A stretch of 52,747 nucleotides of DNA from Gammaproteobacteria bacterium. Its GTDB lineage: Bacteria; Pseudomonadota; Gammaproteobacteria; GCA-001735895. Of the stretch, positions 17,019-52,747 are shown piece by piece; within the stretch, counting starts at the first letter, position 1; every line of letters starts with the position of its first letter. The DNA lies in assembly GCA_041569645.1 (NCBI GenBank), contig JBFFXR010000002.1, positions 1 to 52,747 on the forward strand, given 5' to 3'. The translations under genes were made by a program, and so were the position numbers. Below the pieces are notes generated by a model. It had not been told where the DNA came from, did not search any database, and worked only from the letters and a program-made list of their open reading frames with translations.

Positions 17019-17032
17019 GCCGCCCGAGCAGG

Positions 17033-17555: not shown

Positions 17556-17575
17556 CGCGGGCGGTTCGGGGATGC

Positions 17576-17842: not shown

Positions 17843-19549
17843 ATGGCCGCAACCAATATGAATTTGACCGGAATCGCGCGCAAGCTCGTGATGGACAAGC
17901 ATCTCGATGAAGGCGCGGCGATTCAGGCGGTCGAGGCGGCCAACAAGGAGGGGGTACAGCTGACCAGCTTCCTGGTCAGCAACAAGATCGTGCCGTCGAG
18001 CGTCATCGCGATGATTTCGTCGCAGGAGTTCGGCCTGCCGGTATTCGACCTGACGGTCATGGACACCGAACTGGCGGCGTTTTCGCTGGTCGAGGAAAAA
18101 CTGATCGTCAAGCTCAACGCCGCGCCGCTGTTCAAGCGCGGCAACAAGCTGTTCGTCGCGATTTCGAGCCCGACCAATACCCAGGCGCTCGATGAATTCA
18201 AGTTCGCCACGGGTCTCTCCACCGAGGCGGTGCTGGTGCAGGAAGACCAGCTCACGGACTTCATCGAGAAAGGCACGTCCGCGATGGACACCGCGATGGA
18301 CGACATGCTCGACGACGATCTCGAGAATCTCGATATCGGCGGCGAGGAAGAAGAAGACAGCGGGCCGACCGCAGCCGATGCCGAAGACGCGCCGGTCGTC
18401 AAGTACGTCAACAAGATCCTGCTCGACGCGATCAACAAGGGTGCGTCGGACATCCACTTCGAACCCTACGAAAAAAAGTACCGGATTCGCTACCGGATCG
18501 ACGGCATCCTGCAGGAAGTCGCGTCGCCGCCGATCAACATCGCCGCCAAGCTGACCGCGCGCGTCAAGGTCATGTCACGGATGGACATTTCCGAGCGACG
18601 CGTACCGCAGGACGGCCGCATCAAGCTCAAGCTGTCGAAAAAACGCGCGATCGATTTCCGCGTCAACACCTGCCCGACGCTGTTCGGCGAGAAAGTCGTG
18701 CTGCGGATCCTCGACCCGTCGAGCGCCAAGCTCGGCATCGATGCGCTCGGCTACGAGCCCGAACAAAAAGATTTGTACATGAAGGCGCTGGCCAATCCCT
18801 ACGGCATGATCCTGGTCACCGGCCCGACCGGTAGCGGTAAGACGGTGTCGCTGTATACGGGCCTCAACATCCTGAATAAACCCGAAACGAATATCTCGAC
18901 TGCCGAGGATCCGGCCGAGATCAACCTCGAGGGGATCAACCAGGTCAACGTCAACGATAAGGTCGGGCTGACTTTCGCCGAGGCGCTCAAGGCCTTCCTG
19001 CGCCAGGACCCGGACGTGATCATGGTCGGCGAGATCCGCGATATTGAAACCGCCAACATTGCGATCAAGGCGGCGCAGACCGGCCACCTCGTGCTGTCGA
19101 CCCTGCACACCAACGACGCGCCGCAAACCCTGACGCGCCTGATGAACATGGGCGTGCCGGCGTTCAATATCGCGACCTCGGTCAGCCTGATCATCGCCCA
19201 ACGACTCGGCCGCAGGTTGTGCCCCGAGTGCAAGGCGCTCGACGATCTGCCCAAGGACGTCCTGGTCAGGGAAGGCTTCAAGAAAGAAGACCTGGCCGAG
19301 GATTTCAAGCTCTACAAGGCCGTCGGCTGCGACAAGTGTGTCGGCGGCTACAAGGGCCGGGTCGGCATATACCAGGTCATGACGATCTCCGAGGAAATGG
19401 GCCGCCTGATCATGAGCGGCGCCAACTCGATCGACCTCGCCGACCAGGCGGCGAAGGAAGGCATCGACGATCTGCGCCGTTCGGCGCTGAAGAAAGTCAT
19501 GCAGGGCATTCTCAGCCTGGAAGAAGCAAACCGCGTTACTAAGGACTAA
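17843..19549 (+). CDS. pilB: type IV pilus assembly ATPase PilB
   Basis: 568 aa; N-terminal T2SS-E N domains, Walker A GPTGSGKT, Asp/His boxes, tetracysteine CPEC...CDKC. Confidence 0.93.
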   Translation: MAATNMNLTGIARKLVMDKHLDEGAAIQAVEAANKEGVQLTSFLVSNKIVPSSVIAMISSQEFGLPVFDLTVMDTELAAFSLVEEKLIVKLNAAPLFKRGNKLFVAISSPTNTQALDEFKFATGLSTEAVLVQEDQLTDFIEKGTSAMDTAMDDMLDDDLENLDIGGEEEEDSGPTAADAEDAPVVKYVNKILLDAINKGASDIHFEPYEKKYRIRYRIDGILQEVASPPINIAAKLTARVKVMSRMDISERRVPQDGRIKLKLSKKRAIDFRVNTCPTLFGEKVVLRILDPSSAKLGIDALGYEPEQKDLYMKALANPYGMILVTGPTGSGKTVSLYTGLNILNKPETNISTAEDPAEINLEGINQVNVNDKVGLTFAEALKAFLRQDPDVIMVGEIRDIETANIAIKAAQTGHLVLSTLHTNDAPQTLTRLMNMGVPAFNIATSVSLIIAQRLGRRLCPECKALDDLPKDVLVREGFKKEDLAEDFKLYKAVGCDKCVGGYKGRVGIYQVMTISEEMGRLIMSGANSIDLADQAAKEGIDDLRRSALKKVMQGILSLEEANRVTKD

Positions 19550-19552
19550 GCA

Positions 19553-20776
19553 ATGGCAGCAAAAGCAGCGACCGCCGAAAAAATCGAATTTCTCTACGAG
19601 GGCACCAATCGCGGTGGCACCAAGGTCAAGGGCGAAATATTTGCACTCAGCGATACGCTCGCCAAAAGCGAACTGCGCAAGCAGGGAATCAATCCGCTCA
19701 AGGTCAAGAAAAAGCCGCAACCGCTGTTCGGCAGCGGCGCCAAGGTCAAAGCCGCCGACATCGCCATATTCGCGCGCCAGATGGCGACGATGATGCAGGC
19801 CGGCGTACCGCTGGTGCAGTCCTTCGAGATCATCGGCCAGGGTAACGAAAACCCGGCGATGCAAAAACTGATCTACGGCGTCAAGACCGATGTCGAATCC
19901 GGCTTGCCGCTCGCCGAGGCGCTCGCCAGGCACCCACTGCACTTCGACCAGCTGTTCGTCAACCTGGTGAACGCGGGCGAGCAATCCGGCGCGCTCGAAA
20001 GCATGCTCGACAAGCTGGCGACCTACAAGGAAAAAACCGAAGCGCTCAAGGCCAAGGTCAAAAAGGCCTTGTTCTATCCGATCGCGGTGCTCGTCGTCGC
20101 CTTCGTCGTGACCGTCATCCTGCTGGTCTTCGTCGTGCCGCAATTTCAGGATCTCTTCGAATCCTTCGGCGCAGACCTGCCGGCGCTGACGCTGTTCGTT
20201 ATCGGTCTTTCCGATTTCATGCAAACATGGTGGTACGTCATCGCCGGCGCGATCGCCGGTATCGTTTGGTTCATACTGCGACTGAAGAAAACCTCGCCGA
20301 AGGTGCAGGAAGCCTTCGACCGCTTCGCGCTGCGCGCGCCGGTGGTCGGCGATATCGCGACCAAATCCGCGATTGCGCGCTTTTCGCGAACGCTCGAGAC
20401 CATGTCCGCCGCCGGCGTGCCGCTGGTCGAAGCGATGGATTCGGTCGCCGGCGCCACCGGCAACATCATCTACCACGACGCCAGCCTGCGAATCAAGGAC
20501 GAGGTATCGCAAGGCACCCAGCTTCAGACCTCGATGCGCAACACGGGTCTTTTCCCGAACATGGCGATCCAGATGGTTTCGATCGGCGAGGAAGCCGGTT
20601 CGCTCGACGCGATGCTCGCCAAGGTGGCCGACTTCTACGAGGCCGAGGTCGACAATGCGGTCGACGCGCTGACCTCGCTGCTCGAGCCGATAATCATGGC
20701 GGTTCTCGGCATTCTCGTCGGCGGCCTGATCATCGCGATGTACCTGCCGATCTTCAAACTGGGCTCGGTCGTCTAG
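19553..20776 (+). CDS. pilC: type IV pilus platform protein PilC
   Basis: 407 aa; duplicated GspF-type domains (FARQMATMMQAGVPL and FSRTLETMSAAGVPL), 3 TM segments. Confidence 0.92.
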   Translation: MAAKAATAEKIEFLYEGTNRGGTKVKGEIFALSDTLAKSELRKQGINPLKVKKKPQPLFGSGAKVKAADIAIFARQMATMMQAGVPLVQSFEIIGQGNENPAMQKLIYGVKTDVESGLPLAEALARHPLHFDQLFVNLVNAGEQSGALESMLDKLATYKEKTEALKAKVKKALFYPIAVLVVAFVVTVILLVFVVPQFQDLFESFGADLPALTLFVIGLSDFMQTWWYVIAGAIAGIVWFILRLKKTSPKVQEAFDRFALRAPVVGDIATKSAIARFSRTLETMSAAGVPLVEAMDSVAGATGNIIYHDASLRIKDEVSQGTQLQTSMRNTGLFPNMAIQMVSIGEEAGSLDAMLAKVADFYEAEVDNAVDALTSLLEPIIMAVLGILVGGLIIAMYLPIFKLGSVV

Positions 20777-20800
20777 GCGGCGTTCGTCCAGGGCGGGTTT

Positions 20801-21676
20801 TTGTTCCAGCAGTTTCTCTACCTGTTAGAGCAGAGTCCGACCTTTTTTCTCGGCAGCCTGTTCGTGATCGGGCTCGCCGTGGGCAGTTTTCTCAACGTCG
20901 TCATCTATCGTCTGCCGGTCATGATGCAGCGCGAGTGGCGACGCGACTGCCTCGAGCTGCTCGAACAGGCTGCGCCTGGTGACAGTGAGCGCTTCGATCT
21001 GGCCTATCCGCCGTCACGCTGCGGCCAGTGCGGGCATCGAATCACCGCGCTGGAGAACATTCCGCTACTGAGTTACATCGCGCTCGGCGGTAAATGCGCC
21101 GCCTGCAAAACCCCGATATCGCTGCAGTATCCGCTGGTCGAACTGTTTACCGGCCTGGTTTCGGTGGCCGTCGGCTGGCGTTTCGGCGTCGGTATCGAAA
21201 CGCCGGCCGCATTGATTCTGAGCTGGAGTCTGATCGCCATGAGCGGCATCGATATCGGCCACAAGCTGCTGCCCGACAGCATCACCCTGCCGGTGCTGTG
21301 GCTCGGCCTGCTGCTGGCGCTCGGCGACGTATTCGTGCCGCTCGACACCAGCGTCATCGGCGCCGCGGCCGGCTACCTGAGCCTGTGGAGCGTATTCATG
21401 CTGTTCAAGCTCGTGACCGGCAAGGAAGGCATGGGCTACGGCGATTTCAAGCTGCTCGCCGCGCTCGGCGCCTGGACCGGCTGGGAAATGTTGTTTGTGA
21501 TCGTGTTGACCTCGTCGGTGGTCGGCGCCACGATCGGCATCACGATGATCTTGCTCAAACGCAGCGAACGCGGCACGCAAATACCGTTCGGCCCCTACCT
21601 CGCGGCGGCCGGCTGGATTACGCTGCTGTGGGGCGATTCGCTGCTGCGCTCCTACTACGCCCTGTTCGGGCTGTGA
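20801..21676 (+). CDS. pilD: prepilin peptidase / N-methyltransferase PilD
   Basis: 291 aa (TTG start per track); CGQCGHRI...CAAC zinc motif, GMGYGDFKLLAALGAW aspartyl-protease motif. Confidence 0.9.
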   Translation: MFQQFLYLLEQSPTFFLGSLFVIGLAVGSFLNVVIYRLPVMMQREWRRDCLELLEQAAPGDSERFDLAYPPSRCGQCGHRITALENIPLLSYIALGGKCAACKTPISLQYPLVELFTGLVSVAVGWRFGVGIETPAALILSWSLIAMSGIDIGHKLLPDSITLPVLWLGLLLALGDVFVPLDTSVIGAAAGYLSLWSVFMLFKLVTGKEGMGYGDFKLLAALGAWTGWEMLFVIVLTSSVVGATIGITMILLKRSERGTQIPFGPYLAAAGWITLLWGDSLLRSYYALFGL

Positions 21677-37751: not shown

Positions 37752-37862
<111 letters not shown>

Positions 37863-40503: not shown

Positions 40504-42288
40504 ATGTTTCTCAGGCTCAAGCCTCTGCGCGAGCAACGGAAGATTCTGATTCCGTCCGTGCTCGCCCTCGCCGTTGGCGCCTGCGCCAGCCTTACCCCCG
40601 CCGATCGCAGCGCTGTGCCGGCGGTGGTCGACGGCTATTCGCTCGACGAGATCGACGCGAGCCAGCATCGCGATTTCGACGACTTCAGCGCCGCCGCGGC
40701 GCGCCAGGCCGAGCGCGAAGCCGATCCCTACGATGCTCCCGATTTCAGCCAGTTCGAGCGCCCCGTGCCGATCGATCTCGACATCGAAATCGCGGCCGCA
40801 GAATACGAGGCAACGCAGCGTCGCGAGGCACTGATCGTCGCCGAGATCAAGCAGCGCCTGCGCGCGACCCGCAGCGAACACAGCGCCTGGTTCCGCCTGC
40901 GCGACGGCATGCAGCTCGAACCGGTCATGAACAAGCGCGTCGAGACCCAGCTCAAATGGTACCTCGACCACCCCGGTTACCTGCAGCGGGTCATGCAACG
41001 CGCGCGACCGATCCTGCCCTTCGTGCTCGACGAACTGGAGGATCGCGGCCTGCCCACCGAGATCGCCCTGCTGCCGATCGTCGAATCGGCTTACCAGGCA
41101 TTCGCCTACTCGCATGGTCGCGCTTCGGGTATGTGGCAAATCATCCCATCGACCGGGCGCCTGCTCGGCCTCAAGCAAAACTGGTGGTACGACGGCCGCC
41201 GCGACATCATCGAGTCGACGCGCGCGGCCATCAATTATCTCGAAAGCCTTGCAGCTACTTTCGACGGCGACTGGGAACTGGCGCTCGCCGCGTACAATGC
41301 CGGCCCGGGCAAGATTCGCAATGCCGTGCGCTACAATAAGAAGCGCAAGCGCCCGACCGATTTCTGGCACCTGACCAAGATCCGCCGCGAAACCCGCGCC
41401 TACGTGCCGAAACTGTTCGCGCTCAAGGAGCTGTTTTCGCATCCCGAGCGCTACGGCCTCGACCTGGTTCCGATCAACAACGAAGTCGACTACGAAATTG
41501 TCGAACTCGACGGTCAGATCGACCTCGCGCTAGCGGCCGAACTCGCCGAGATTTCGATCAATCAGCTCTACCAGCTCAACCCGGCGTTTAACCGCTGGGC
41601 GACGGCACCTGGCGGACCGCACCGCCTGCTGCTGCCGCGCGGCAAGGCCGAGAGCTTTCGTACCGCCGTCGCCGAGGTTCCGGCCAACCAGCGCATCAAC
41701 TGGGTTCGCCACAAGATCGGGAACGGCGAGACCTTGAGCCACATCGCGCGCAAGTACCGTACGACCATCCCGCTGATCCGGGAAGTCAACAATATCCGCG
41801 GCACGCAAATTCGCGCCGGCAAGTACCTGACGATTCCGACCGCAACCAAGTCGCTGCAGACCTATACGCTGAGCGAATCGTCGCGCGTCGCGCGCATCCA
41901 GAACACTTCGCGCAAGGGCAAGAAGCTGGTTCACGTTGTGCGACCGGGGCAAAGCCTGTGGTCCATCTCGCGCAGCTACGGTGTCTCGACCCGCCAGCTG
42001 GCCAAGTGGAATGCGATGGCGCCGATCGATACCTTGCGCGTCGGGCAAAAGCTCGTGGTCTGGACACGCGACGATGTCGCCCGGGCCCTGAGCGTCAACC
42101 AGACGCGCCCGAGCAACGCGCTGCACGCGCTGCGCTATACCGTGCGCAAGGGTGATTCGCTGTATCGTATCGCCAATAAATTCAACATCAGCGTCGCCGA
42201 TATCAAGCGCTGGAACAAGGTCGGCAAATATCTGCAGCCGGGACAGAAACTGAAACTTTACGTCGACATTACGCAGCAATCCGGGTAA
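40504..42288 (+). CDS. mltD: membrane-bound lytic murein transglycosylase D (SLT domain plus three LysM repeats)
   Basis: 594 aa; lipobox-like LALAVGAC, SLT catalytic region LLPIVESAYQAFAYSHGRASGMWQIIPSTG, AAYNAGPG, three LysM repeats (HKIGNGETLSHIARKY, HVVRPGQSLWSISRSY, YTVRKGDSLYRIANKF). Confidence 0.9.
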   Translation: MFLRLKPLREQRKILIPSVLALAVGACASLTPADRSAVPAVVDGYSLDEIDASQHRDFDDFSAAAARQAEREADPYDAPDFSQFERPVPIDLDIEIAAAEYEATQRREALIVAEIKQRLRATRSEHSAWFRLRDGMQLEPVMNKRVETQLKWYLDHPGYLQRVMQRARPILPFVLDELEDRGLPTEIALLPIVESAYQAFAYSHGRASGMWQIIPSTGRLLGLKQNWWYDGRRDIIESTRAAINYLESLAATFDGDWELALAAYNAGPGKIRNAVRYNKKRKRPTDFWHLTKIRRETRAYVPKLFALKELFSHPERYGLDLVPINNEVDYEIVELDGQIDLALAAELAEISINQLYQLNPAFNRWATAPGGPHRLLLPRGKAESFRTAVAEVPANQRINWVRHKIGNGETLSHIARKYRTTIPLIREVNNIRGTQIRAGKYLTIPTATKSLQTYTLSESSRVARIQNTSRKGKKLVHVVRPGQSLWSISRSYGVSTRQLAKWNAMAPIDTLRVGQKLVVWTRDDVARALSVNQTRPSNALHALRYTVRKGDSLYRIANKFNISVADIKRWNKVGKYLQPGQKLKLYVDITQQSG

Positions 42289-42404
42289 TCCACGCGTGCC
42301 CGCGAAGCTGTTTTTACTTTTTCCTGCGAACGGTTGCTTTATCAAGAACCAGCGGCCAAAATAGCTTCTTGCCACGCAATTGGTAAAGGATTCTGCGAAA
42401 CACC

Positions 42405-43460
42405 ATGAGCCTAGAGATCGATCCCAAACAGATAAAAACGCTCTCGCCGATCAATTCGCTGAATCCAGAAAACGCTCAAGAATTAATCAAAAAAATCAGC
42501 GCGACCGCGGTTCAACCAGGGCATTACCTGTTCAAGAAAGGCGATTCCGAAAAGTGTCACGTCTACGTCCTCAAGGGCGAGGTCGAACTGGTACAGGACA
42601 AGAAAGTCATCAAGGTGATCAAGGCCGGTTCGCCCGAAGGCTTGCAACCGCTGGCGCATGGTTTTCCGCGGCCCGTATCGGCGCGAGCCAAATCGGAAGT
42701 CGTGATTACCAAAATCAACAGCGACATGCTCGATATCATGCTGACCTGGGACCAGACCGGCAGCTACTCGGTCGAGGCGGTCGACGAAGAAGACGAGGAA
42801 ACCGACTGGATGACGCGCATTCTGCAGACTCGCGCGTTCCACCGGATACCGCCGGCCAATATCCAGGCGATGTTCATGCGCATGGAATCGGTCGGCTTCA
42901 AGCCCGGCGACAAGATCATCGAGCAGGACGACGAGGGCGACTATTTCTACATCATCAAGGAAGGCCGCTGCCTGGTCACCCGCTCGACACCGGCCAACCC
43001 GAAGGGCGTCAAGCTCGCGACTCTGTCGGTCGGCGACAGCTTCGGCGAGGAAGCCCTGATCTCCGACAGCAAGCGCAACGCCACGGTCACGATGCTGACC
43101 GAGGGCAGCCTGATGCGCCTCGGCAAGGAAGATTTCAATTCGCTGCTCAACGAGCCCTTGCTGAACTGGGTCGATTACGACGAAGCCAGGAAGCTGGTTG
43201 CCGACGGCGCGGTCTGGTTCGACGTGCGGCTGCCGACCGAACACAAGGCCAAGCACATCAAGGGCAGCATCAACATTCCGCTGATTTTTTTGCGCATGAA
43301 GGCGAACTCGCTCGACGCGAACAAGAAGTACGTCATTTATTGCGACACCGGCCGCCGCAGCTCGGCGGCATCATTTCTGCTGAACGAAAAGGACATCGAG
43401 TCTTTCGTGCTACGTGACGGCGTCGATACCGCCGAGCCCGGCGATCTCGTTTCCGCCTGA
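42405..43460 (+). CDS. tandem cyclic-nucleotide-binding domains fused to a rhodanese domain
   Basis: 351 aa. CNB-1 is degenerate. CNB-2 has SFGEEALISDSKRNATV (FGE...R-x-A phosphate-binding cassette). The C-terminal rhodanese has the active-site loop YCDTGRRS. Confidence 0.8.
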   Translation: MSLEIDPKQIKTLSPINSLNPENAQELIKKISATAVQPGHYLFKKGDSEKCHVYVLKGEVELVQDKKVIKVIKAGSPEGLQPLAHGFPRPVSARAKSEVVITKINSDMLDIMLTWDQTGSYSVEAVDEEDEETDWMTRILQTRAFHRIPPANIQAMFMRMESVGFKPGDKIIEQDDEGDYFYIIKEGRCLVTRSTPANPKGVKLATLSVGDSFGEEALISDSKRNATVTMLTEGSLMRLGKEDFNSLLNEPLLNWVDYDEARKLVADGAVWFDVRLPTEHKAKHIKGSINIPLIFLRMKANSLDANKKYVIYCDTGRRSSAASFLLNEKDIESFVLRDGVDTAEPGDLVSA

Positions 43461-43466
43461 ATGGCG

Positions 43467-45077
43467 TCAGGCCGACGCCGCGTAACCCGGAATCGCCGAC
43501 TCGTCGATTTCGTCGATCTGTTCCGGCAATAGAAATTCCCTGGCGTAATCGAGATAGACTTTTTCGCGAATGAAAATATCGAAGATATCCGGATCGATGT
43601 GGTTGTCCCTTTTCATGAAACCCATGATCCGGAGACATTCGGACAGGGTCTTGCCCTGCTTGTAGGGCCGGTCGCTGGCGGTCAACGCCTCGAAAATATC
43701 GGCGATCGCCATGATCCGCGCCTGCACCGACATATCTTCGCGACGCAGCCCGCGCGGATACCCCGTGCCGTCCATCTTCTCGTGGTGGCCGCCGGCATAC
43801 TCCGGCACGTTTTGCAGGTTTTTCGGAAACGGTAGCGATTCGAGCATCTTGATCGTCGCGACGATATGATGGTTGATGACCTTGCGTTCGCTGTCGTTGA
43901 GCGTGCCGCGCTTGATACAAAGATTCGTGACTTCGTCTTCGTTCAATAGCGGCCGCCGCTCGCCACTCGCGTCGGTCCATTCGATTCGCGCCAGCCGCTC
44001 GACCCGAGCGATGTCTTCGTCGCGCATGAATTCGCCGCCGATATTGACATGGCGCAAAAATTCCAGGTCTTGCTGCAGCTCAACGCAGTAGTTCTCGAAG
44101 GCCTGGCGCCGGCGTTTGCGTTCGGCGTCGCTCGAATCATTTTCGAGGCATGCCCTGAGGTAGTCGTTCTCGGCGTCGCGCCGCAGCAGTTCGAAGCGGG
44201 TTTCGAGAAGCTGGATTCGATCGCAAATCGTCTCGAGCTTGGTCGCCTTGTCCATCACGTACTCCGGCGTGACGACCTTGCCGCAATCGTGCAGCCAGGC
44301 CGCCGTCTCGAGCTCGTAACGATCCTTGGCGTCGATATGAAAATCTTTCAGCGGCCCCTGGTCGGTGCGATGCGCGGCTTCCGCCAGCATCATCGTCAGC
44401 ACCGGAATGCGGCGGCAATGACCGCCGGTATAAGGCGATTTATCGTCGATCGCCGACGCAATCATGCGGATGAAGGATTCGAACAGTTCGCGCAACTCGT
44501 TGATCAGTCGCCGCTGGGTCAGCGCGACCGCGGCCTGCGAGGCCAGCGACTCGGCGAGTTGCTGCTCGACATCGCGAAATTCGACCACCTCGCCGCTGGT
44601 GGAATCGCGCGCGTTGATCAACTGCAAGGCGCCGATTATTTCCTGTTCATGGTCCTTGAGCGGAAAGGTCAACATCGACTGCGTGCGATAGCCGGTCTGG
44701 GCGTCGAAACTGCGCGTACCGCTGAAATCGAAACCGTCCTCGTTGTAGGCGTCGGCGATATTGACCGTCTCGCCCGATAACACGCAATGGGTGACGACAT
44801 TGCTGTGATTTTCTTCGCCGTCGACGCATAGCGGGATCGCCGGAAAAGTGATCTCGCTGCCCGAAGCGCCGCCCATCTGGATGTCGAGCGAGTCGTTCGA
44901 AATGATCTCGAAACTGAGTTCACCGTTATTGACGAAGTACAGCGATCCACCGTCCGCATGGGTCAACGACTTCGCGCCCATCATGATCAGCTCGAGTAAT
45001 TTCGGCGTATCGGTTTCGGCTGAAAGCGCGATTCCGATTTCGTTGAGACGATCAATTCTATCGAGCAATTCGGACAT
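43467..45077 (-). CDS. GAF domain plus HD-GYP domain protein (putative c-di-GMP phosphodiesterase)
   Basis: ATG at 45077 (MSELLDRIDRLNEIGIAL) within track ORF 43467..45134. N-terminal GAF; AAWLHDCGKV (HD) and GGHHEKMDGTGYPRGL (GYP). Confidence 0.85.
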   Translation of the reverse strand: MSELLDRIDRLNEIGIALSAETDTPKLLELIMMGAKSLTHADGGSLYFVNNGELSFEIISNDSLDIQMGGASGSEITFPAIPLCVDGEENHSNVVTHCVLSGETVNIADAYNEDGFDFSGTRSFDAQTGYRTQSMLTFPLKDHEQEIIGALQLINARDSTSGEVVEFRDVEQQLAESLASQAAVALTQRRLINELRELFESFIRMIASAIDDKSPYTGGHCRRIPVLTMMLAEAAHRTDQGPLKDFHIDAKDRYELETAAWLHDCGKVVTPEYVMDKATKLETICDRIQLLETRFELLRRDAENDYLRACLENDSSDAERKRRRQAFENYCVELQQDLEFLRHVNIGGEFMRDEDIARVERLARIEWTDASGERRPLLNEDEVTNLCIKRGTLNDSERKVINHHIVATIKMLESLPFPKNLQNVPEYAGGHHEKMDGTGYPRGLRREDMSVQARIMAIADIFEALTASDRPYKQGKTLSECLRIMGFMKRDNHIDPDIFDIFIREKVYLDYAREFLLPEQIDEIDESAIPGYAASA

Positions 45078-45210
45078 TTCTGTTACGCCGACGCATCGCC
45101 GGCAACGAGTTTGCGGACCGACTGCGAGACTCAATCTATTCTAGGTTACTCGCCCGGCATTTCAATTGCGCCGGGAGTAAATAATTGGCCTTTACACTGG
45201 TAAAAAAGTG

Positions 45211-45257
45211 ACGACAACCTTATAGTTGTCCGCGATCGCACGACAAATGAACGACAA
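45211..45257 (+). repeat. three direct copies of ACGACAA in the divergent promoter region (a fourth, ACGACAC, lies at 45389-45395)
   Basis: ACGACAA at 45211-45217, 45240-45246 and 45251-45257. Copy 1 is part of the inverted repeat GACAAC-cttata-GTTGTC (45213-45230). Confidence 0.45.
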
Positions 45258-45406
45258 CGGGGTCGCGAGCTGTTAAGCAGTTCAAGGCGTTTGCATAAAC
45301 GTTTGAAAATTATACGGTTTGGGCTACCTTTAAACCCGGGCCAATGTCCCATTCGACGCCTGCAAACTTGGGGCCGTTCAATAAGAAAACGACACTAGGA
45401 GACGGA

Positions 45407-48037
45407 ATGAAATCCCGTTTTTGGAGTAGCGATTGGTTTGCCGGACTACTGATTACAATCGTTGTCGTCGTCTTCTCGGGTACCGCCGCCTTCCAGGGTC
45501 TGGAACGCAATTTTTACGACTGGGGCGTGCGTTCGACCGAACGCCTGCCGTCCGACAAGGTCGCGATCATCGCGATCGACGACCAGAGCATCAATAACAT
45601 CGGCCGCTGGCCCTGGCCTCGCGATCTGCACGCCGAGCTGATCAATCGGCTTGCCGAAAGCGGCGCCAAGGTCGTCGGTCAAACCGTGTTTTTTCTCGAA
45701 CCGCAAGAAGATCCCGGAACCCTCTACATCCGTGAACTGATCGAGTTCTTTTCCAACGCCAGTTTCAACGATGTGCCCGCCGATGTCGACGCCTTGCGCG
45801 CGATGCTCGAGATCAAGGGCAATGATCGCGCGGTCGCCGAAATTCTCGAGTTCTATCTCCAGTCCAGCGTCAACACACGGCTGAGCCAGGATATCGAAAC
45901 GCTGAAGTCGAGCCTGTTCGAGGCCGAGCAGGCGCTCAACACCGACAACAAGCTCGCGCAAAGCCTCGCCGAGGCAAACAACGTCGTACTGGCGATGGTG
46001 TTTTATCTCGGAGTCCCGCGCGGCAAGCCCGATTCGGAACTGCCCGACTACGTGTTGCGCAACTCGCTCAACCAGATCCGCGACCGGATCTCGGCGCAGG
46101 CCAACGGCCTGTTTCCGATTCCGAGCATCAACGTGCTGCCGCCGATTCCGGAAATTGGCCGCCACGCCACGGCCATCGGGCACCTCAACACCCTGCCCGA
46201 TCTCGACGGCGGCGTGCGCTCCGAGCCGCTGGTATTGCAATATTATGATCGTTTTTTTCCGTCGATCTCGCTGCAACTCGCGGCGAAAAGCCTGAATCTC
46301 GACGTCAACGACATTCGCGTCAACCTCGCGGAAAGCGTCGAGCTCGGCAGCCTGACGATCAAGACCGATACGCAGCTGCAAATGAACACCTTTTACTACT
46401 CGGACATCGAAGGATTTCCGGCCTTTCAGGTCGATTCCTTCTACGACGTTTTCAGCGGCAAGATTCCGCTCGACAAGTACCGCGACAAGATCGTGCTGAT
46501 CGGGCCGACCGCGACCGGCGTCGGCACGCCACAGGTAACCCCGATCGATCCGGCAATGGCGCCGGTTCTGACGCTCGCGCATTCGGTCTCGAGCATTCTG
46601 AACGAAGATTTTTTCATCGAACCGGAATGGGGCTTTTGGGCGCGCATGGGTGCCTTTTTGCTGATCGCGCTCTACCTGATGCTGTTGATGCCGAGACTCA
46701 AGGCCGGCGTCGCCTTCGTCGTCAGCTTCGCGCTGCTGCTGGCGCTGGTCGTGACCCACTACGTGCTGATGACGAACAACACGATGTGGGTACAATTGAT
46801 GACTCCGGGTGCGCTGCTCGTCATCGGCTACCTGTTGATCACGACCAAGCGCTTCCTCGTCACCGAGCGCGGCAAGGCCAGGTCGGATGTCGAGTCGGCC
46901 GAAAGCAATCGCATGCTCGGCATCGCATTCCAGACCCAGGGCCAGCTCGACATGGCCTTCGAAAAGTTTCGCAAGTGCAGCCCGGTGGACGAACAGGTGC
47001 TCGAGGCGATGTACAACCTTGCGCTCGATTTCGAGCGCAAGCGCCAGTTCAACAAGGCATCGTCGGTCTACCAGTACATGTCCAGGCACGACAAGGGATT
47101 TCGCGACATCGAGTCGCGCATGCAGCGTGCGCAAAAAATGGAGGAGACGGTCATGCTCGGCGGTAGCGGTGGTCACGCCGGCGGCACCCTGGTGCTCGAT
47201 GAAGGCGGGGTCGAGAAACCGATGCTCGGCCGATACGAAGTCGAAAAGGAACTCGGCAAGGGCGCGATGGGCATCGTCTACCTCGGCCGCGACCCGAAGA
47301 TAAGCCGCGTGGTCGCCATCAAGACGATGGCGCTGGCGCAGGAATTCGAAGAAGACGAACTCGACGAAGTCAAGGAACGATTCTTTCGCGAAGCCGAAAC
47401 CGCGGGCCGCCTGAATCATCCGTACATCGTCACGATTTACGATGCCGGCGAGGAACACGATCTCGCCTATATCGCGATGGAGTTCCTGCAGGGACAGGAC
47501 CTGACCCGCTACACCAAACCGGATAGTCTGCTGCCGATGTCGAAAGTCCTCAGCATCGTGCAGCGTGCCGCCGAGGGCCTCGATTTCGCGCATCAGCAAA
47601 ACGTCGTACACCGCGACATCAAGCCTGCCAATATCATGTGGGAGCCCGAATCCGACTCGCTGAAAATTACCGATTTTGGTATCGCGCGCATCACCGATTC
47701 GAGCAAAACCAAGACCGGCATGGTACTCGGCACGCCGTCGTACATGTCGCCCGAGCAACTGGCCGGCAAAAAGGTCGACGGCCGTTCCGACCTGTTCTCG
47801 CTCGGCGTCATGCTCTACCAGATGCTGTCCGGTTCGCTGCCGTTCAAGGCCGACTCGATGGCGAGCCTGATGTTCAAGATTACCAATGAGGACGCGCCCG
47901 ACGTGCGCACGATTCGTAGCGAAATTCCCGATGCCCTGGCCGCCGTGATCGAAAAGGCGCTCACCAAGGATGTTGATCAACGCTTCCAGACCGGAACCGA
48001 ATTTGCGAATGCACTCAAGGCATTCCTGAAACAGTAG
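45407..48037 (+). CDS. CHASE2 sensor - TM - TPR-like linker - Hanks-type Ser/Thr protein kinase
   Basis: ATG at 45407 (GGAGA RBS) within track ORF 45344..48037; 876 aa. CHASE2 signature IAIDDQSINNIGRWPWPRD. TM helices near FWARMGAFLLIALYLMLLM. Kinase motifs GKGAMGIVY, VAIK, HRDIKPAN, DFGIAR, GTPSYMSPE. Confidence 0.88.
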   Translation: MKSRFWSSDWFAGLLITIVVVVFSGTAAFQGLERNFYDWGVRSTERLPSDKVAIIAIDDQSINNIGRWPWPRDLHAELINRLAESGAKVVGQTVFFLEPQEDPGTLYIRELIEFFSNASFNDVPADVDALRAMLEIKGNDRAVAEILEFYLQSSVNTRLSQDIETLKSSLFEAEQALNTDNKLAQSLAEANNVVLAMVFYLGVPRGKPDSELPDYVLRNSLNQIRDRISAQANGLFPIPSINVLPPIPEIGRHATAIGHLNTLPDLDGGVRSEPLVLQYYDRFFPSISLQLAAKSLNLDVNDIRVNLAESVELGSLTIKTDTQLQMNTFYYSDIEGFPAFQVDSFYDVFSGKIPLDKYRDKIVLIGPTATGVGTPQVTPIDPAMAPVLTLAHSVSSILNEDFFIEPEWGFWARMGAFLLIALYLMLLMPRLKAGVAFVVSFALLLALVVTHYVLMTNNTMWVQLMTPGALLVIGYLLITTKRFLVTERGKARSDVESAESNRMLGIAFQTQGQLDMAFEKFRKCSPVDEQVLEAMYNLALDFERKRQFNKASSVYQYMSRHDKGFRDIESRMQRAQKMEETVMLGGSGGHAGGTLVLDEGGVEKPMLGRYEVEKELGKGAMGIVYLGRDPKISRVVAIKTMALAQEFEEDELDEVKERFFREAETAGRLNHPYIVTIYDAGEEHDLAYIAMEFLQGQDLTRYTKPDSLLPMSKVLSIVQRAAEGLDFAHQQNVVHRDIKPANIMWEPESDSLKITDFGIARITDSSKTKTGMVLGTPSYMSPEQLAGKKVDGRSDLFSLGVMLYQMLSGSLPFKADSMASLMFKITNEDAPDVRTIRSEIPDALAAVIEKALTKDVDQRFQTGTEFANALKAFLKQ

Positions 48038-48050
48038 TCTCGCCGGCTCG

Positions 48051-48875
48051 ATGAATCTGCAAAATAAAATTTCGATCACGGGCTTGACCGACGCCGGACG
48101 CGTGAGGGAAAAAAACGAAGACGCAATCGGCTTCGACAGTGCGCTCGGACTGGTTGTGCTCGCCGACGGCATGGGCGGTCATCGCGGCGGCGAAATAGCC
48201 AGCAGCATGACGGTCGACAAGATCATCGGCGATTTACAGCAGCGCCTGCCCGAAATCGAAACCGGCGAAATCGACGAAGCCAGCGGCTTTTCAATGGAGT
48301 CGATCTGCATCCAGGATGCGGTCGTCGCGGCCAACGAGCTGGTCTACAATACCGCCGAAGCGAACCCCGAGCACAAGGGAATGGGCACGACGATCGTCGT
48401 GCTGCAGTTCTACAACAATTCGTTTTCCCTCGCGCACATCGGCGACTCACGCTGTTACCGTTTGCGCAGCGACAAAATCGAGCAAATTACCAAGGATCAT
48501 TCGCTGCTGCAGGAACTCATCGACCGGGGCTTTTACACCCCCGAGGAAGCGCGCAATTCGATGAACAAGAACCTCGTTACTCGCGCGCTCGGCATCGATC
48601 CGATCGTCATGCCGGACATCCAGGAAGATATAGTCCTGAAAAACGACATATATTTGCTATGTTCTGATGGATTAACCGATTTAGTTGAAGACAACGATAT
48701 ATACTTAACTATTAAGCAATTTAGTGCTAATCTAGAAGATGCTGCCAAGCAATTGATTACAAAGGCAAACCAGAAAGGCGGAAAGGACAATATTTCGGTA
48801 ATGCTATGCCGAATCGACGAGGATTTTTCGACCAAACAGGGCTGGTTCAAAAAGTTGGTTGGATGGTTCGATTAA
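48051..48875 (+). CDS. PP2C-family Ser/Thr protein phosphatase
   Basis: 274 aa; TDAGRVREKNEDA, LADGMGGH, LCSDGLTD, GGKDNISV. The last ~80 codons are encoded by markedly AT-rich DNA. Confidence 0.9.
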   Translation: MNLQNKISITGLTDAGRVREKNEDAIGFDSALGLVVLADGMGGHRGGEIASSMTVDKIIGDLQQRLPEIETGEIDEASGFSMESICIQDAVVAANELVYNTAEANPEHKGMGTTIVVLQFYNNSFSLAHIGDSRCYRLRSDKIEQITKDHSLLQELIDRGFYTPEEARNSMNKNLVTRALGIDPIVMPDIQEDIVLKNDIYLLCSDGLTDLVEDNDIYLTIKQFSANLEDAAKQLITKANQKGGKDNISVMLCRIDEDFSTKQGWFKKLVGWFD

Positions 48876-48920
48876 CGGATTAGACCGGTTTCAAAATTTC
48901 TCTAGAGGCTGAATCACAAC

Positions 48921-49643
48921 ATGGTCGCAAAACTGATAATGACATCGAGCTCGGGCGAGCAGACCGAATACGAACTGGTCAACGAAACCACGACGATTGG
49001 ACGCAAGCCGGGCAATGATATTCAGATCGACAATCTGTCAGTCAGCGGCCGCCACGCTCAGGTCATCACGATTCTCGAGGACTCTTTTCTCGAGGATCTC
49101 GGCAGCACCAACGGCACCTATGTCAACGGCAAACTGGTCAAGAAACACGCGCTCGAGCACGGCGACAACATCACGCTGGGCAAGTATCAAATCACCTATC
49201 ACAACGCCGCCAGCGGCGGCGAGCAGGATTTCGAGCAAACGATGATCATCCGCCCCGGCGAGGCGGGCATGCCCGAGGAAGCCGGTGGCAAAGAAATCGA
49301 CAAATCGGTACAAAAAATTTCCGCGGCGATTGCCTCGGAGGCCGCGAGCGCCGCGGCTTCGCCGATGTCGAACCGCGAAGCCTGCCTGCAACTGCTGTCC
49401 GGCGCCAATGCCGGCAAGGAACTGATCCTGACCAAGGCCCTGACGACGATCGGCCAACCCGGGGTCCAGGTTGCCGCGATTACCCGCCGGCCGCAGGGAT
49501 TCTTCCTGATTCACGTCGACGGTGGCCCCAATAACAATGTTCCCAAGGTCGGCGGTTCCCCGATCGGCTCCAATGCTCACGAACTCAAAAGCCACGACAT
49601 CATCGAGATCGCTGGCGTCAAGATGGAATTCTATCTGAAGTAA
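48921..49643 (+). CDS. FHA-domain protein (canonical N-terminal FHA plus degenerate C-terminal FHA-like domain)
   Basis: 240 aa. FHA-1: TTIGRKPGNDIQIDNLSVSGRHAQV...GSTNGTYVNG (GR, SxxH, NG all present). The C-terminal TTIGQPGV...IIEIAGVKMEFY lacks these residues. Confidence 0.85.
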   Translation: MVAKLIMTSSSGEQTEYELVNETTTIGRKPGNDIQIDNLSVSGRHAQVITILEDSFLEDLGSTNGTYVNGKLVKKHALEHGDNITLGKYQITYHNAASGGEQDFEQTMIIRPGEAGMPEEAGGKEIDKSVQKISAAIASEAASAAASPMSNREACLQLLSGANAGKELILTKALTTIGQPGVQVAAITRRPQGFFLIHVDGGPNNNVPKVGGSPIGSNAHELKSHDIIEIAGVKMEFYLK

Positions 49644-49686
49644 ATTCGGCGGCCGGCTCCGCCGATTCACACCCCGGGAGCAAGTC

Positions 49687-51918
49687 ATGCAGCTACAGCG
49701 CATCGTTCGGCTGGTGCTCAGCGCGCTGATTTTGCTCGTGCTGCTTATCGATACTTCCGGTCTCTACGACTATCCTTTTGTTCGGCAACTCGAGAACTGG
49801 ACCTACGACGCGCGCCTGAATTTCACCCTGCCGCGCGATCTCGACGAACGCATCGTCATCGTCGACATCGACGAGAACTCGCTCGCCGAGGTCGGTCGCT
49901 GGCCGTGGAGCCGCGACAAGCTCGCGACGATGGTCGACAATCTCTTCGAATACTACCAGGCCGACGTGGTCGGTTTCGATATCGTGTTTGCCGAGAAGGA
50001 CGAGAGCTCCGGACTGGACAAATTCGAGGAGCTCGCGCGCACGACTCTGAGCGACAACCCCGAATACAAAAAGGCACTCGACGATATCCGGCCGAGCCTG
50101 CGGCACGACGAAATCTTCGCCAACAGCCTGGTCGGGCGCGACGTCGTCCTCGGCTATTACTTCAAGTATTCGTTGCAGGAGGGTGAGTCGGGCGTGACCG
50201 GCCTGCTGCCCCCGGCACTGACCAAGATGGACGCGCAGTGGCGCGAGCGCCTGCCGATCAACAAGGCCGCCGGCTATGGCGGCAACCTCGAGATCCTGCA
50301 GGTATCGGCGCGCAGCGGCGGATACTTCGATAACCCTTATGTCGACCCCGACGGCGTGTTCCGCCGCGTGCCGCTGATCCAGTCCTACAAGGGCTACCTG
50401 TTCGCGTCGCTCGCACTCGCCACCGCCCAAGCACACCTCGATGCTTCCGGCATCGAGCTGGTGGTCGAATCCTCGGGAAAAAAGGGCGGCAAGGAGTACT
50501 ACGCGCTGGAAACCATCAAACTGGAGAATTACCGGATTCCGGTGGACATGAACGGCGCCGTATTCGTTCCCTTCCGCGGGCCGCAGGGAAGCTTCCCGTA
50601 CGTCTCGGCACACGAAGTCCTGTCTCGCGATGCCAGGCCGGAGCAGTTGCGAAACAAGATCGTACTCGTCGGCACATCGGCTCCGGGCCTGCTCGATCTT
50701 CGTTCGACGCCGGTACAAAACGTTTATCCCGGGGTCGAGGTTCACGCCAATATCATTTCCGGAATCCTCGACGAGCGTATCAAGCACAAGCCGGCCTGGA
50801 CCGTCGGCTACGAGTTCGTCCTGCTGGTCGTCATCGCGGTCAGCATGGCCCTGTTGCTGCCGATCGTCTCGCCGCTGCTTGCGACCGCAGGGACATTGAC
50901 GCTCACCGCAATCGTGCTCGCCGGTACCTTCTTCGCCTGGGAAAACAACCTGATACTGCCGCTCGCGAGCCCGCTGTTGCTGCTCGTACTGATGTTCATG
51001 CTGCACATGACCTACGGTTTTTTCATCGAATCGCGCGGCAAGCGCCAGCTCGCCAACCTGTTCGGCCAGTACATCCCGCCGGAACTGGTCGACGAGATGA
51101 GCGCCTCGCCCCAGGAATTCTCGCTCGACGGCGAGAATCGCGAAATGACCGTGCTGTTTTCCGACGTTCGCGGCTTCACGACGATTTCCGAAGGCATGGA
51201 TCCCAAACAGCTGACCCAGTTGATGAACGCGCTGCTGACGCCGATGACGCGGGTCATACACAAATACCGCGGCACCATCGACAAGTACATGGGCGACGCG
51301 ATCATGGCTTTCTGGGGCGCACCGCTGGCCGATTCCGAGCACGCCCGGCACGCGCTCTACGCGGCGATGGAAATGATGGACGAGCTCAAGATCATGCAGG
51401 CAGATTTCAGGCAGCGCGGCTGGCCCGAAGTCAACATCGGTATCGGCCTCAACACCGGCGACATGAACGTCGGCAACATGGGTTCCGAATTCCGCATGGC
51501 TTACACCGTGCTCGGGGATGCGGTCAATCTCGGGTCGAGACTGGAAGGCCTGACCAAGGAATATGGTGTCAACATCATCGTCAGCGAGACGACCAAGGCG
51601 GCGATCCCGGAATTCGTCTTTCGCGAGCTGGACCTGGTGATAGTCAAAGGCAAACACGAACCGGTCGCGATCTTCGAGCCGGTCGGCCACAAGAACGATC
51701 TCGACAAATCGATCACGTCCGAACTATCGGCTTACCGCAAGGCGCTGATGTATTTCCGCGCGCAGGACTGGGACAAGGCGGAGCTCGACTTTTTCAATCT
51801 GAACCGCGCCTATCCCGACAGATTCCTCTACCAGGTCTATCTCGATCGCATCGCGATTTACCGCAAGGACCCGCCCGGCGACGACTGGGACGGCGTCTTC
51901 ACCCACACGACGAAATAA
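49687..51918 (+). CDS. CHASE2 sensor - TM - class III nucleotidyl cyclase (predicted adenylate cyclase)
   Basis: 743 aa; CHASE2 VDIDENSLAEVGRWPWSRD, TM cluster, cyclase motifs VLFSDVRGFT, IDKYMGDAIMAFWG, AYTVLGDAVNLGSRLEG. Confidence 0.88.
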   Translation: MQLQRIVRLVLSALILLVLLIDTSGLYDYPFVRQLENWTYDARLNFTLPRDLDERIVIVDIDENSLAEVGRWPWSRDKLATMVDNLFEYYQADVVGFDIVFAEKDESSGLDKFEELARTTLSDNPEYKKALDDIRPSLRHDEIFANSLVGRDVVLGYYFKYSLQEGESGVTGLLPPALTKMDAQWRERLPINKAAGYGGNLEILQVSARSGGYFDNPYVDPDGVFRRVPLIQSYKGYLFASLALATAQAHLDASGIELVVESSGKKGGKEYYALETIKLENYRIPVDMNGAVFVPFRGPQGSFPYVSAHEVLSRDARPEQLRNKIVLVGTSAPGLLDLRSTPVQNVYPGVEVHANIISGILDERIKHKPAWTVGYEFVLLVVIAVSMALLLPIVSPLLATAGTLTLTAIVLAGTFFAWENNLILPLASPLLLLVLMFMLHMTYGFFIESRGKRQLANLFGQYIPPELVDEMSASPQEFSLDGENREMTVLFSDVRGFTTISEGMDPKQLTQLMNALLTPMTRVIHKYRGTIDKYMGDAIMAFWGAPLADSEHARHALYAAMEMMDELKIMQADFRQRGWPEVNIGIGLNTGDMNVGNMGSEFRMAYTVLGDAVNLGSRLEGLTKEYGVNIIVSETTKAAIPEFVFRELDLVIVKGKHEPVAIFEPVGHKNDLDKSITSELSAYRKALMYFRAQDWDKAELDFFNLNRAYPDRFLYQVYLDRIAIYRKDPPGDDWDGVFTHTTK

Positions 51919-51921
51919 GCT

Positions 51922-52747
51922 TTACCAGCTGCGGCGCAGTTCGGCGGCGAGGATTTCGATGCCGCGCGCGAGATCTTCTTCGCTTTGCACGAAATTCATG
52001 CGAATACAGCATTCGCCGTGCGCCGAGACTTCGCGCTGGCCGGGAAAGAAGTATTTGCCCGGGACGATCAGCAGCCCGTTGCGTTTGAGGCGCTCGTAGA
52101 GTTCGCTGGTGGTGATACCCAGGTCTTCGAAGTAGAGCCACAGGAACATCGACCCCTCGGGCTTGTGGATGTGCAGCCGCGGGTCGTCGACCGCCGACTG
52201 CAGGAGTTCGACCGCGAGCCGCGAACGCTGCTGATAAAACGGCCGGATAATATTCTCGCACAGCGGCTCGAGCGCATCGTCAACGATCAGCCGGTTGACG
52301 ATCGACGCGCCGATTCCCGCCGGTGCGAGACTCGTGATCGCGGTCAGATTGGCGAAGTAGCGGATCAAGTCCTCGCTGGCAATGACGATGCCGGTACGAC
52401 TGCCGGGCAGGCCGAGTTTCGACAGGCTCATGCAGACGATGCAGTTGTCGTTCCACAACGGACTGACCTCGTCGAAAATGATGTTCGGAAACGGTGTGCC
52501 GTAGGCGCTGTCGATCAGCAGCGGCACGTCGTGATCGCGCGCGATCCGGTCGAGCTGTGCGCATTCGGTGTCGGTCAGCACGTTGCCGCTGGGATTGGTC
52601 GGCCGCGACACGCAGATCAGGCCGGTCGAGTCGTCCACGGCGAGATTGTCGAAGTCGACCTGGTACTTGAAAAAGCCGCCGTCGAGATGCTCGATACGCG
52701 CCGGCTGGCTGGTGATCAGGTCGGCCTCGATACCGAGATCGCAGTAA
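51922..52747 (-). CDS. avtA: valine-pyruvate (class I/II) aminotransferase, C-terminal part; 5' end beyond the right window edge
   Basis: The reading frame stays open upstream of the track GTG at 52638 to the window edge (YCDLGIEADLITSQPARIEHLDGGFFKYQVDFDNLAVDDSTGLICVSRPTNPSGN), resembling E. coli AvtA around ICVSRPTNPTGN; SLSK PLP-Lys motif present. Confidence 0.8.
   Translation of the reverse strand, partial: YCDLGIEADLITSQPARIEHLDGGFFKYQVDFDNLAVDDSTGLICVSRPTNPSGNVLTDTECAQLDRIARDHDVPLLIDSAYGTPFPNIIFDEVSPLWNDNCIVCMSLSKLGLPGSRTGIVIASEDLIRYFANLTAITSLAPAGIGASIVNRLIVDDALEPLCENIIRPFYQQRSRLAVELLQSAVDDPRLHIHKPEGSMFLWLYFEDLGITTSELYERLKRNGLLIVPGKYFFPGQREVSAHGECCIRMNFVQSEEDLARGIEILAAELRRSW

Follow-up and report, generated by a model that had tools for sequence, protein, structure and literature searches.

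A conserved four-gene cassette of Gamma- and Betaproteobacteria that may couple a phospho-threonine switch to cAMP synthesis

When the genes of a serine/threonine (Ser/Thr) phosphorylation system lie directly beside a gene for a nucleotide cyclase, do their products work as one signalling device or merely as neighbours? This question is raised by a locus in a 52,747-nucleotide stretch of DNA from a Gammaproteobacteria bacterium (contig JBFFXR010000002.1 of assembly GCA_041569645.1), the whole of which is referred to below as the window. Positions 45407-51918 of its plus strand hold four genes, encoding in this order a CHASE2-Hanks kinase, an Stp1-type PP2C phosphatase, an FHA protein and a CHASE2-class III cyclase. 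FHA domains read phospho-threonine (pThr), and the initial annotation of the window had described the locus as a writer, eraser and reader of pThr hard-wired to cyclic AMP (cAMP) synthesis. Our analysis indicates that the four genes form a conserved cassette, and we consider it likely that this cassette is one functional unit. Whether it couples a PknB/PstP-type pThr switch to cAMP synthesis through a GarA-like adaptor switch is a closer call, and we put the chances at about even. In other words, we are dealing with a widespread combination of known modules, in which the new elements are a distinctive adaptor and candidate phosphorylation sites.

Gene layout and conservation of the cassette

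The four open reading frames (ORFs) span positions 45407-48037, 48051-48875, 48921-49643 and 49687-51918, all on the plus strand, and are separated by 13, 45 and 43 nucleotides, in exact agreement with the initial description. The kinase frame is open from 45344, and the start at 45407 is supported by an AGGAG Shine-Dalgarno sequence located 5 nucleotides ahead of that ATG. Pfam profiles for CHASE2, Pkinase, PP2C, FHA and Guanylate_cyc were all matched by the encoded proteins. The catalytic and pThr-binding motifs of all four, which had been described as intact, are indeed all present and are kept across 46-75 orthologues.

An alignment of the FHA protein with its close metagenomic relatives was used as the query for a scan of one genome per GTDB species, and relatives were detected in at least 548 species-level genomes. 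The best 80 of these loci were taken with up to 10 kb of flanking sequence on each side and searched by tblastn with the window proteins split by domain; the 46 loci having enough flank were counted. The hosts of the 80 loci are uncultured Gammaproteobacteria, including the Gamma 3 symbiont of the gutless worm Olavius algarvensis, metagenome-assembled genomes of Burkholderiales, Nitrosomonadales, Thiobacillaceae and Sulfuritalea, and Methylohalomonas lacus, the one cultured carrier. Marine and sediment habitats are represented among the uncultured Gammaproteobacteria, and soil and groundwater among the Burkholderiales.

Of the 46 loci, 36 contain the complete set of four genes, across both Gamma- and Betaproteobacteria. 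The cyclase gene lies on the same strand as the other three in 26 loci; in another 10 it is inverted and thus convergent, still being the next gene after that of the FHA protein. Four loci retain PP2C, FHA and cyclase genes with the kinase either absent or devoid of its CHASE2 part, and six have PP2C and FHA genes without the cyclase (the kinase is present in two of them and absent in four). The only invariant pair, found in all 46 loci, is PP2C-FHA. Recurrence of the four-gene arrangement in 36 of 46 independent species-level loci is more than chance. Therefore, the four genes represent a conserved cassette, though their association is not obligatory.

Absence of the four-gene neighbourhood from related genomes had been named in the initial annotation as grounds for refutation; the neighbourhood is clearly kept, and it extends over three genomic contexts. 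In the clade of the window, the cassette is preceded by genes for an MltD-like protein, a protein with cyclic nucleotide monophosphate (cNMP)-binding and rhodanese domains and an HD-GYP protein, and is followed by an aminotransferase gene. In Burkholderiales, oxalyl-CoA-type metabolic genes are found upstream. In M. lacus (locus L050), of the Methylohalomonas-type clade, MutS/DUF4124 genes lie on one side, and an Mla-like ATP-binding cassette (ABC) system together with STAS and GAF-SpoIIE genes lies on the other. The only genes common to all three contexts examined are the four cassette genes. On a related 705-kb contig (L081), independent gene calls combined with Pfam reproduce the gene order of the window. 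Moreover, when a matrix of pairwise identities is drawn up for each of the four proteins, the matrices correlate with each other (Pearson 0.84-0.93), as expected for a unit inherited together. A search of plasmids with the FHA protein gave no full-length homologue, only partial matches to generic FHA domains. Full-text literature searches, whose coverage left out most subscription journals, returned no description of the cassette; within the literature searched, the earlier remark that no characterised system has this architecture holds.

The adaptor, the two CHASE2 proteins and the phosphatase

The FHA protein, hereafter the adaptor, is a distinctive component. Its structural analysis is based on AlphaFold2 predictions compared with known structures by Foldseek. 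According to the model, the adaptor has one beta-sandwich domain at residues 1-95 and another at residues 154-240. The linker between them is disordered, its predicted local distance difference test score (pLDDT) being below 50 at residues 97-150. The N-terminal domain (48921-49205) is assigned as a canonical pThr-binding FHA domain by both Pfam (PF00498, E-value 2.8e-22, 79.4 bits against a cut-off of 20.7) and the residues G27-R28, S42-x-x-H45 and N64-G65, which are invariant in orthologues. Foldseek matches it best to GarA/OdhI, among them 6i2p (the PknB-GarA complex) and 2kb3 (phospho-OdhI).

The C-terminal domain (49380-49643), when modelled alone, reaches a pLDDT of 87.8 and TM-scores of 0.72-0.78 to the FHA domains of GarA/OdhI, so that the degenerate second FHA-like half seen in the initial annotation indeed has the FHA fold. 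It has no Pfam match and lacks the Arg, Ser, His and Asn residues of pThr binding (it reads IGQ, has no SxxH and reads DGG). Since this domain has the FHA fold, yet neither a Pfam match nor the pThr-binding residues, we refer to it as a pseudo-FHA domain. BLASTP between the two halves of the adaptor detects no similarity, and their kinship is visible at the level of the fold only. The family of the pseudo-FHA domain is large, with matches in 1110 clusters at 50% identity. In the 150 best matches listed, the domain is located at the C-terminal end of the protein. Of the eight long matches that were scanned, seven carry an N-terminal FHA domain and merely have a longer linker or a duplicated FHA domain, and the eighth has unrelated ferredoxin/oxidoreductase matches. 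Long PP2C and FHA ORFs of up to 1117 residues, seen in some loci, are over-extended high-GC frames, and we rejected them as fusions.

Across the 75 adaptor orthologues, the low-complexity linker varies in sequence save for a single motif, [DE]-F-E-[KQ]-T107-M-[IV]-[IL]-[RK]-P-G, which in the window reads D-F-E-Q-T107-M-I-I-R-P-G (49227-49259). T107 is present in 73 of the 75 orthologues, and the +3 position is Ile or Leu, likewise in 73 of 75. Only the adaptors of L024 and L026 are without T107 (they have Pro and Gly there), and no kinase was found upstream of either, the upstream flank of L024 being only 3.8 kb long. This pattern of conservation makes T107 a candidate phospho-acceptor and self-docking site.

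A similar motif is found in the kinase protein (45407-48037, 876 residues). The latter is composed of CHASE2 (residues 18-423), four transmembrane helices (TMs, approximately residues 11-29, 410-428, 431-449 and 460-478), a TPR-like region and a kinase domain (residues 610-861). The Pfam matches are strong for both CHASE2 (5.5e-52, 177.3 bits against a cut-off of 26.3) and Pkinase (PF00069, 7.7e-57, 193.1 bits against 31.7). The motifs GKGAMG, the VAIK Lys, the alphaC Glu, HRDIKPAN, DFG and SPE (APE-like) are kept in 46 orthologues, and the closest solved structure to the kinase domain is PknB (E-value 1.6e-51). The protein thus belongs by sequence to the Hanks-type Ser/Thr kinases, and phosphotransfer activity is predicted. 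The initial annotation had read its architecture as CHASE2-TM-TPR-kinase. The CHASE2, TM and kinase parts stand, but the TPR part is only TPR-like: the helical region at residues ~498-556 (46898-47074), although kept in orthologues, matches TPR_2 below the threshold (E-value 2e-4, 21.7 bits against a cut-off of 27, in two stretches). The flexible segment separating this region from the kinase domain contains the juxtamembrane motif E-E-T581-V-M-L-G-G (47141-47164). T581 is invariant in all 46 orthologues, the consensus being [ED]-T-[VI]-[IML]-[LI]-G-G with Leu at pT+3 in the window kinase. The activation loop TDSSKTKTG is invariant among the kinase orthologues as well. The motifs around T107 and T581 are alike, each having the form acidic-T-hydrophobic-hydrophobic-[I/L] with Ile/Leu at pT+3, the position selected by many FHA domains. 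We consider T581 a candidate site of both autophosphorylation and FHA docking; neither it nor T107 had been pointed out in the initial annotation.

Hydropathy profiles of the kinase and the cyclase proteins are alike, with one N-terminal TM followed by CHASE2 and then by three TMs. CHASE2 of both membrane proteins is therefore predicted to lie extracytoplasmically between TMs, and, with one TM before and three after it, both output domains are predicted to be cytoplasmic. The two CHASE2 domains had been called paralogous; they are indeed related, but the relationship is loose and ancient (26% identity, E-value 3e-17). No solved structure for CHASE2 was detectable by sequence search.

The phosphatase (48051-48875, 274 residues) is of the Stp1/PstP type. 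It matches Pfam PP2C (3.9e-14) and passes the cut-off of the NCBIfam Stp1/IreP model NF033484 (248.5 bits against 230). The motifs NED, DGMGG, DG and DN are present, all 70 orthologues keep the metal-binding motifs without variation, and the closest PDB entries are Stp1, PstP and PppA (6jkv).

The cyclase protein (49687-51918, 743 residues) consists of CHASE2 (residues 16-385; PF05226, 1.5e-60, 205.4 bits against 26.3), TMs, a catalytic domain (residues 485-659; Guanylate_cyc, 2.6e-22, 79.8 bits against 21.9) and a weakly conserved C-terminal tail. The motifs FSDVRGFT, DKYMGD, AYTVLGD and NLGSR are kept in orthologues. In the alignment with the closest solved structure, Pseudomonas aeruginosa CyaB (3r5g, E-value 8e-36), counterparts exist for both metal Asp residues (one in FSDVRGFT, the other in DKYMGD), for the specificity residues Lys (DKYMGD) and Thr (AYTVLGD), the Thr standing in place of Asp in class IIIb, and for the Asn/Arg pair (NLGSR). 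In Cya2, a guanylate cyclase, the specificity residues are Glu and Gly. Since the Lys/Thr, metal Asp and Asn/Arg residues align with those of CyaB, assignment to class IIIb adenylate cyclases is supported, and cAMP is the predicted product. The class IIIb pattern of Lys and Thr pointed out in the initial annotation is thereby anchored to the corresponding residues of CyaB.

A possible route from phosphorylation to cAMP and its alternatives

How could these components work together? Since the kinase and the cyclase have the same CHASE2-4TM layout, periplasmic cues would reach both of them in parallel. The activated kinase would autophosphorylate its activation loop and the juxtamembrane T581 (E-T-V-x-L), providing pT581 on which the N-terminal FHA domain of the adaptor would dock. 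The kinase would then phosphorylate T107 (E-x-T-M-I-I) in the disordered linker, and pT107 would be bound intramolecularly by the FHA domain of the adaptor, in the manner of GarA/OdhI. That the adaptor is both a dock and a substrate of the kinase seems to us probable. The T107 switch might alter the binding choice of the pThr-blind pseudo-FHA domain. The most likely partner of this domain would be the neighbouring cyclase, so the adaptor would gate the cAMP output, and PP2C would reset the switch. We are more tentative about a direct action of the adaptor on the cyclase, the odds of which we see as somewhat short of even. All phosphorylation and binding steps, as well as the direction of the effect on the cyclase, are those that we infer.

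A number of observations weigh against this scheme. In 10 of the 46 loci, the kinase, its CHASE2 part or the cyclase is missing within 10 kb. Because these loci are incomplete and PP2C-FHA is the sole invariant pair, the expression "hard-wired" used in the initial annotation for the link to cAMP synthesis is too strong. An inverted cyclase gene, as found in 10 loci, cannot be co-transcribed with the other three genes. Three loci (L003, L006 and L022) have lost most of the kinase and kept PP2C-FHA-cyclase along with the T107 motif, and in loci of the L066 type PP2C-FHA stands alone among housekeeping genes. In the cyclase, with both linker and tail examined, there is no conserved Ser/Thr outside the generic motifs of the catalytic core, and among the 150 best matches of the pseudo-FHA family there is no FHA-cyclase fusion. 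Finally, a scan for sigma-70 promoters gave no plus-strand match upstream of 45407.

The exceptional loci could be accommodated by an alternative that we regard as possible, if rather unlikely. The kinase/PP2C/FHA set and the cyclase might be co-regulated parallel sensors, perhaps of the same envelope cue. CHASE2 of the cyclase would in that case be the sole control on cAMP synthesis, and the adaptor would target another protein, by analogy with GarA, which acts on metabolic enzymes, and Fha1, which acts on a secretion machine. Parallel sensing would fit the lack of both a conserved docking Thr in the cyclase and FHA-cyclase fusions, as well as the cyclase genes on the opposite strand. It is also favoured by the presence of PP2C-FHA without a nearby cyclase in L066, L067, L069, L071 and L077 and by the pseudo-FHA domain being still conserved in cyclase-less loci. 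However, the adjacency of the FHA and cyclase genes outlasts both the inversion and three unrelated contexts, and no other conserved partner gene is common to all the contexts.

Another alternative, which we consider improbable, does without an adaptor acting on the cyclase. The kinase might phosphorylate the cyclase directly, or the CHASE2 proteins might form a heteromeric receptor, and the main role of the FHA protein would be to scaffold or regulate the kinase and the phosphatase, as FhaA/FipA do for PknB. This possibility draws on the shared CHASE2-4TM layout, on several conserved Thr residues in the catalytic domain of the cyclase and on the sequence E-M-T488-V-L-F at the start of this domain, which fits the Thr motif. 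However, T488 sits in the beta1 strand common to CyaB and Cya2, and the other conserved Thr residues belong to the same generic class III core, present in both of these enzymes. For this reason we rejected T488 as a docking Thr. In addition, direct phosphorylation would leave both the T107 motif and the pseudo-FHA domain unexplained. The idea of an anti-phage defence island, either Pycsar-like (a cyclase with a cNMP-binding effector) or PD-T4-6-like (a Ser/Thr kinase), was rejected as highly improbable: the PADLOC models of PD-T4-6, PycC and the Pycsar effector do match the kinase, the cyclase and the cNMP-binding domains, but they cover generic catalytic or binding domains only, the specificity residues of the cyclase are of the purine type (Lys/Thr), as in CyaB, the domain joined to the cNMP-binding ones is a rhodanese and not a TIR or TM toxin domain, the chromosomal context is a stable housekeeping one, syntenic across species, and plasmids have no full-length adaptor homologue.

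Coupling of a pThr switch to the cyclase through the adaptor, which we prefer, can be compared with several known systems. The cassette resembles PknB (PknG)-PstP-GarA/OdhI in that the kinase is closest to PknB, the PP2C to Stp1/PstP and the FHA domain to GarA/OdhI, and in that a conserved Thr with a hydrophobic residue at +3 is found in a disordered segment beside the FHA domain. GarA/OdhI are self-binding phospho-switches (PDB 2kb3, 6i2p). However, the sensor here is CHASE2 and not PASTA, and the hosts are Proteobacteria. The candidate phospho-site is C-terminal to the FHA domain instead of N-terminal (ETTS), a second, pThr-blind FHA-fold domain is added, and the neighbouring output is a cyclase instead of tricarboxylic acid cycle enzymes. 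The adaptor is not an OdhI/GarA orthologue, as it scores 66.3 bits with NF041660 against a cut-off of 200. Thus, it may work like GarA despite being outside the OdhI/GarA family.

The PpkA-PppA-Fha1 (TagH) set of the P. aeruginosa type VI secretion system (T6SS) likewise brings together genes for a PP2C, an FHA protein and a TM Hanks kinase in a proteobacterium. By its score with TIGR03354 (46.5 bits against a cut-off of 120.25), the adaptor falls outside the TagH/Fha1 family, and the periplasmic domain of PpkA is presumably not CHASE2. Furthermore, no T6SS gene was found beside the cassette in the window (40504-52638), in L032, in L050 or in the 20.7-kb L081 locus. P. aeruginosa CyaB shares with our cyclase the Lys/Thr pair and the metal Asp, Asn and Arg residues; its membrane module is MASE2 in place of CHASE2, and we know of no FHA or kinase neighbours of CyaB. 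A precedent for FHA control over a nucleotide cyclase is provided by Bdellovibrio DgcB, a diguanylate cyclase that is activated when FHA binds the phosphorylated tail of the same protein (PMC6733907). The FHA domain of DgcB is among the Foldseek matches, but there it is fused to GGDEF, whereas here it belongs to a separate polypeptide and the cyclase is of class III. Synechocystis Cya1 may be a further case of an FHA domain fused to a cyclase, though the literature searched gave no confirmation of it. Finally, the combination of CHASE2 with a class III cyclase is present in Sinorhizobium meliloti CyaD1/CyaD2, which have been studied in vivo and produce cAMP upon an external plant signal (PMC5498481, PMC13001267). 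The likeness is one of architecture, and no kinase/PP2C/FHA partners are reported for CyaD1/CyaD2 in these two papers.

Surroundings of the cassette and implications

Two genes upstream of the cassette in the window, overlooked in the initial interpretation of the locus, have a bearing on cyclic nucleotides. One (42405-43460, plus strand) encodes two cNMP-binding domains (cNMP_binding, 1.2e-29, two stretches) and a rhodanese domain (1.2e-12), and its product is likely a cAMP receptor tied to the cassette. The other (43467-45134, minus strand, with a probable start at 45077) is divergent from the cassette and encodes a GAF-HD-GYP protein, recognized by Pfam GAF and HD_5 (149.4 bits against a cut-off of 27.2) and having HD at residue 282, HHE at residue 450 and GYP at residue 458. 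Orthologues of both genes are located upstream in the window clade and downstream, in another order, in Burkholderiales. Because they accompany the cassette even when arranged differently, both genes are probably part of the same module.

The Burkholderiales cluster is encoded on one strand and comprises genes for CHASE2-kinase, PP2C, FHA, CHASE2-cyclase and a metallo-beta-lactamase protein resembling class-II cAMP phosphodiesterases, followed by those for the cNMP-binding/rhodanese protein, a GAF-MshEN-T2SSE ATPase and the GAF-HD-GYP protein. The phosphodiesterase-like gene is present in 25 of the 80 loci, and all but one of these 25 also have the GAF-MshEN-T2SSE ATPase gene; the window has no counterpart of the former. 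This extended operon of Burkholderiales/Nitrosomonadales is represented by L032 (13071-19156) and 24 other loci (e.g. L031, L036, L057 and L076). With kinase, PP2C and FHA on the one hand and cyclase, phosphodiesterase and cNMP-binding/GAF proteins on the other, writer, eraser and reader sets for pThr and for cAMP are found side by side. The co-encoded cAMP genes strengthen the functional link of the cassette to cAMP. In the proposed scheme, cAMP would be read by the cNMP-binding/rhodanese protein and probably also by the GAF-HD-GYP protein, which may provide a link to cyclic di-GMP (c-di-GMP) turnover. The gene content further hints that c-di-GMP and an ATPase of the pilus or secretion type may be linked to the module downstream. 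It is conceivable, though on balance unlikely, that the whole chain operates, in which the Hanks kinase and PP2C would gate cAMP by means of an adaptor combining FHA, T107 switch and pseudo-FHA, and the signal would pass on to c-di-GMP turnover and the pilus/secretion ATPase.

Farther upstream, an MltD-like lytic transglycosylase with SLT and three LysM domains (40504-42288, plus strand) is encoded throughout the window clade; its position probably reflects synteny by descent rather than a functional link. In L050, the genes beyond the convergent cyclase (12330-17677) encode an Mla-like system (MlaD, MlaE, an ATPase and an auxiliary lipoprotein) as well as STAS and GAF-SpoIIE phosphatase proteins, a partner-switching module beside the cassette. 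In the window, ordinary type IV pilus assembly genes lie at 17843-21676 (plus strand), some 24 kb ahead of the cassette; their products are a pilB-like T2SSE ATPase with MshEN, a T2SSF protein of the pilC-like kind and a prepilin peptidase resembling pilD.

Some of the incomplete loci retain traces of rearrangement. Remnants of the kinase gene are seen in the close relatives L003 (8419-9108), L006 (6660-6833) and L022 (5512-5958), whose FHA proteins have 83-93% identity. In these three loci one deletion took the GAF-HD-GYP gene together with the CHASE2/N-lobe part of the kinase gene and left PP2C, FHA and cyclase intact. In L066 (5477-6316 and 9151-10708), the PP2C-FHA pair lies amid HPPK, PriA and ArgS genes, with a DDE transposase gene ~3 kb upstream and no kinase or cyclase within 10 kb.

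The spacer between the FHA and cyclase genes (49644-49686) folds at -12.6 kcal/mol, and its length ranges from 4 to 241 nucleotides in other genomes. It contains a plus-strand GC hairpin with a 7-bp stem and a 6-nucleotide loop (49646-49665), which was noted initially. The hairpin is real, but it recurs only in the nearest relative, L001. Given this narrow recurrence and the lack of a U-tract on the plus strand, we rejected the idea of a conserved attenuator or terminator. Its 3' arm, GCUCC, complements the Shine-Dalgarno sequence of the cyclase gene (GGAGC), and in several close relatives (L002, L005, L007, L008, L027, L029 and L030) an alternative stem pairs UGCUC with GGGAGCA. The spacer structure may sequester the ribosome-binding site and so tune translation of the cyclase.

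Between the divergent genes, the only good sigma-70-like match (45138-45165, minus strand), which agrees at 10 of 12 positions, faces the GAF-HD-GYP gene. Two long antisense ORFs, 45446-48172 (908 residues) and 49693-51690 (665 residues), both on the minus strand, overlie the kinase and cyclase genes. Independent gene calls on the related contig L081 have no minus-strand genes at the matching positions. Since G+C content is roughly 60%, these ORFs are most likely non-coding shadows of G+C-rich genes. The sole Rfam match in the window is a bacterial small signal recognition particle RNA (37758-37853, minus strand; RF00169, 61.2 bits), with none inside the operon, and no tRNA genes were found in the window.

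What would the cassette mean for bacterial signalling? CHASE2 is one of the commonest extracytoplasmic sensor domains of bacteria, and to our knowledge no CHASE2 ligand has been defined. With its two CHASE2 receptors and two easily measured outputs, pThr and cAMP, the cassette offers a tractable system for ligand screening. If the proposed reading is true, the cue shared by the two receptors could be sought genetically. Likewise, the tandem FHA/pseudo-FHA adaptor and the T107 motif are open to direct mutagenesis. As far as we know, no mechanism by which Ser/Thr phosphorylation controls class III cyclases has been defined in Proteobacteria. The cassette would join Hanks-type phosphorylation to cyclic-nucleotide synthesis in this group and, if our reading is true, would represent the first defined path by which bacterial Ser/Thr phosphorylation controls a class III cyclase.

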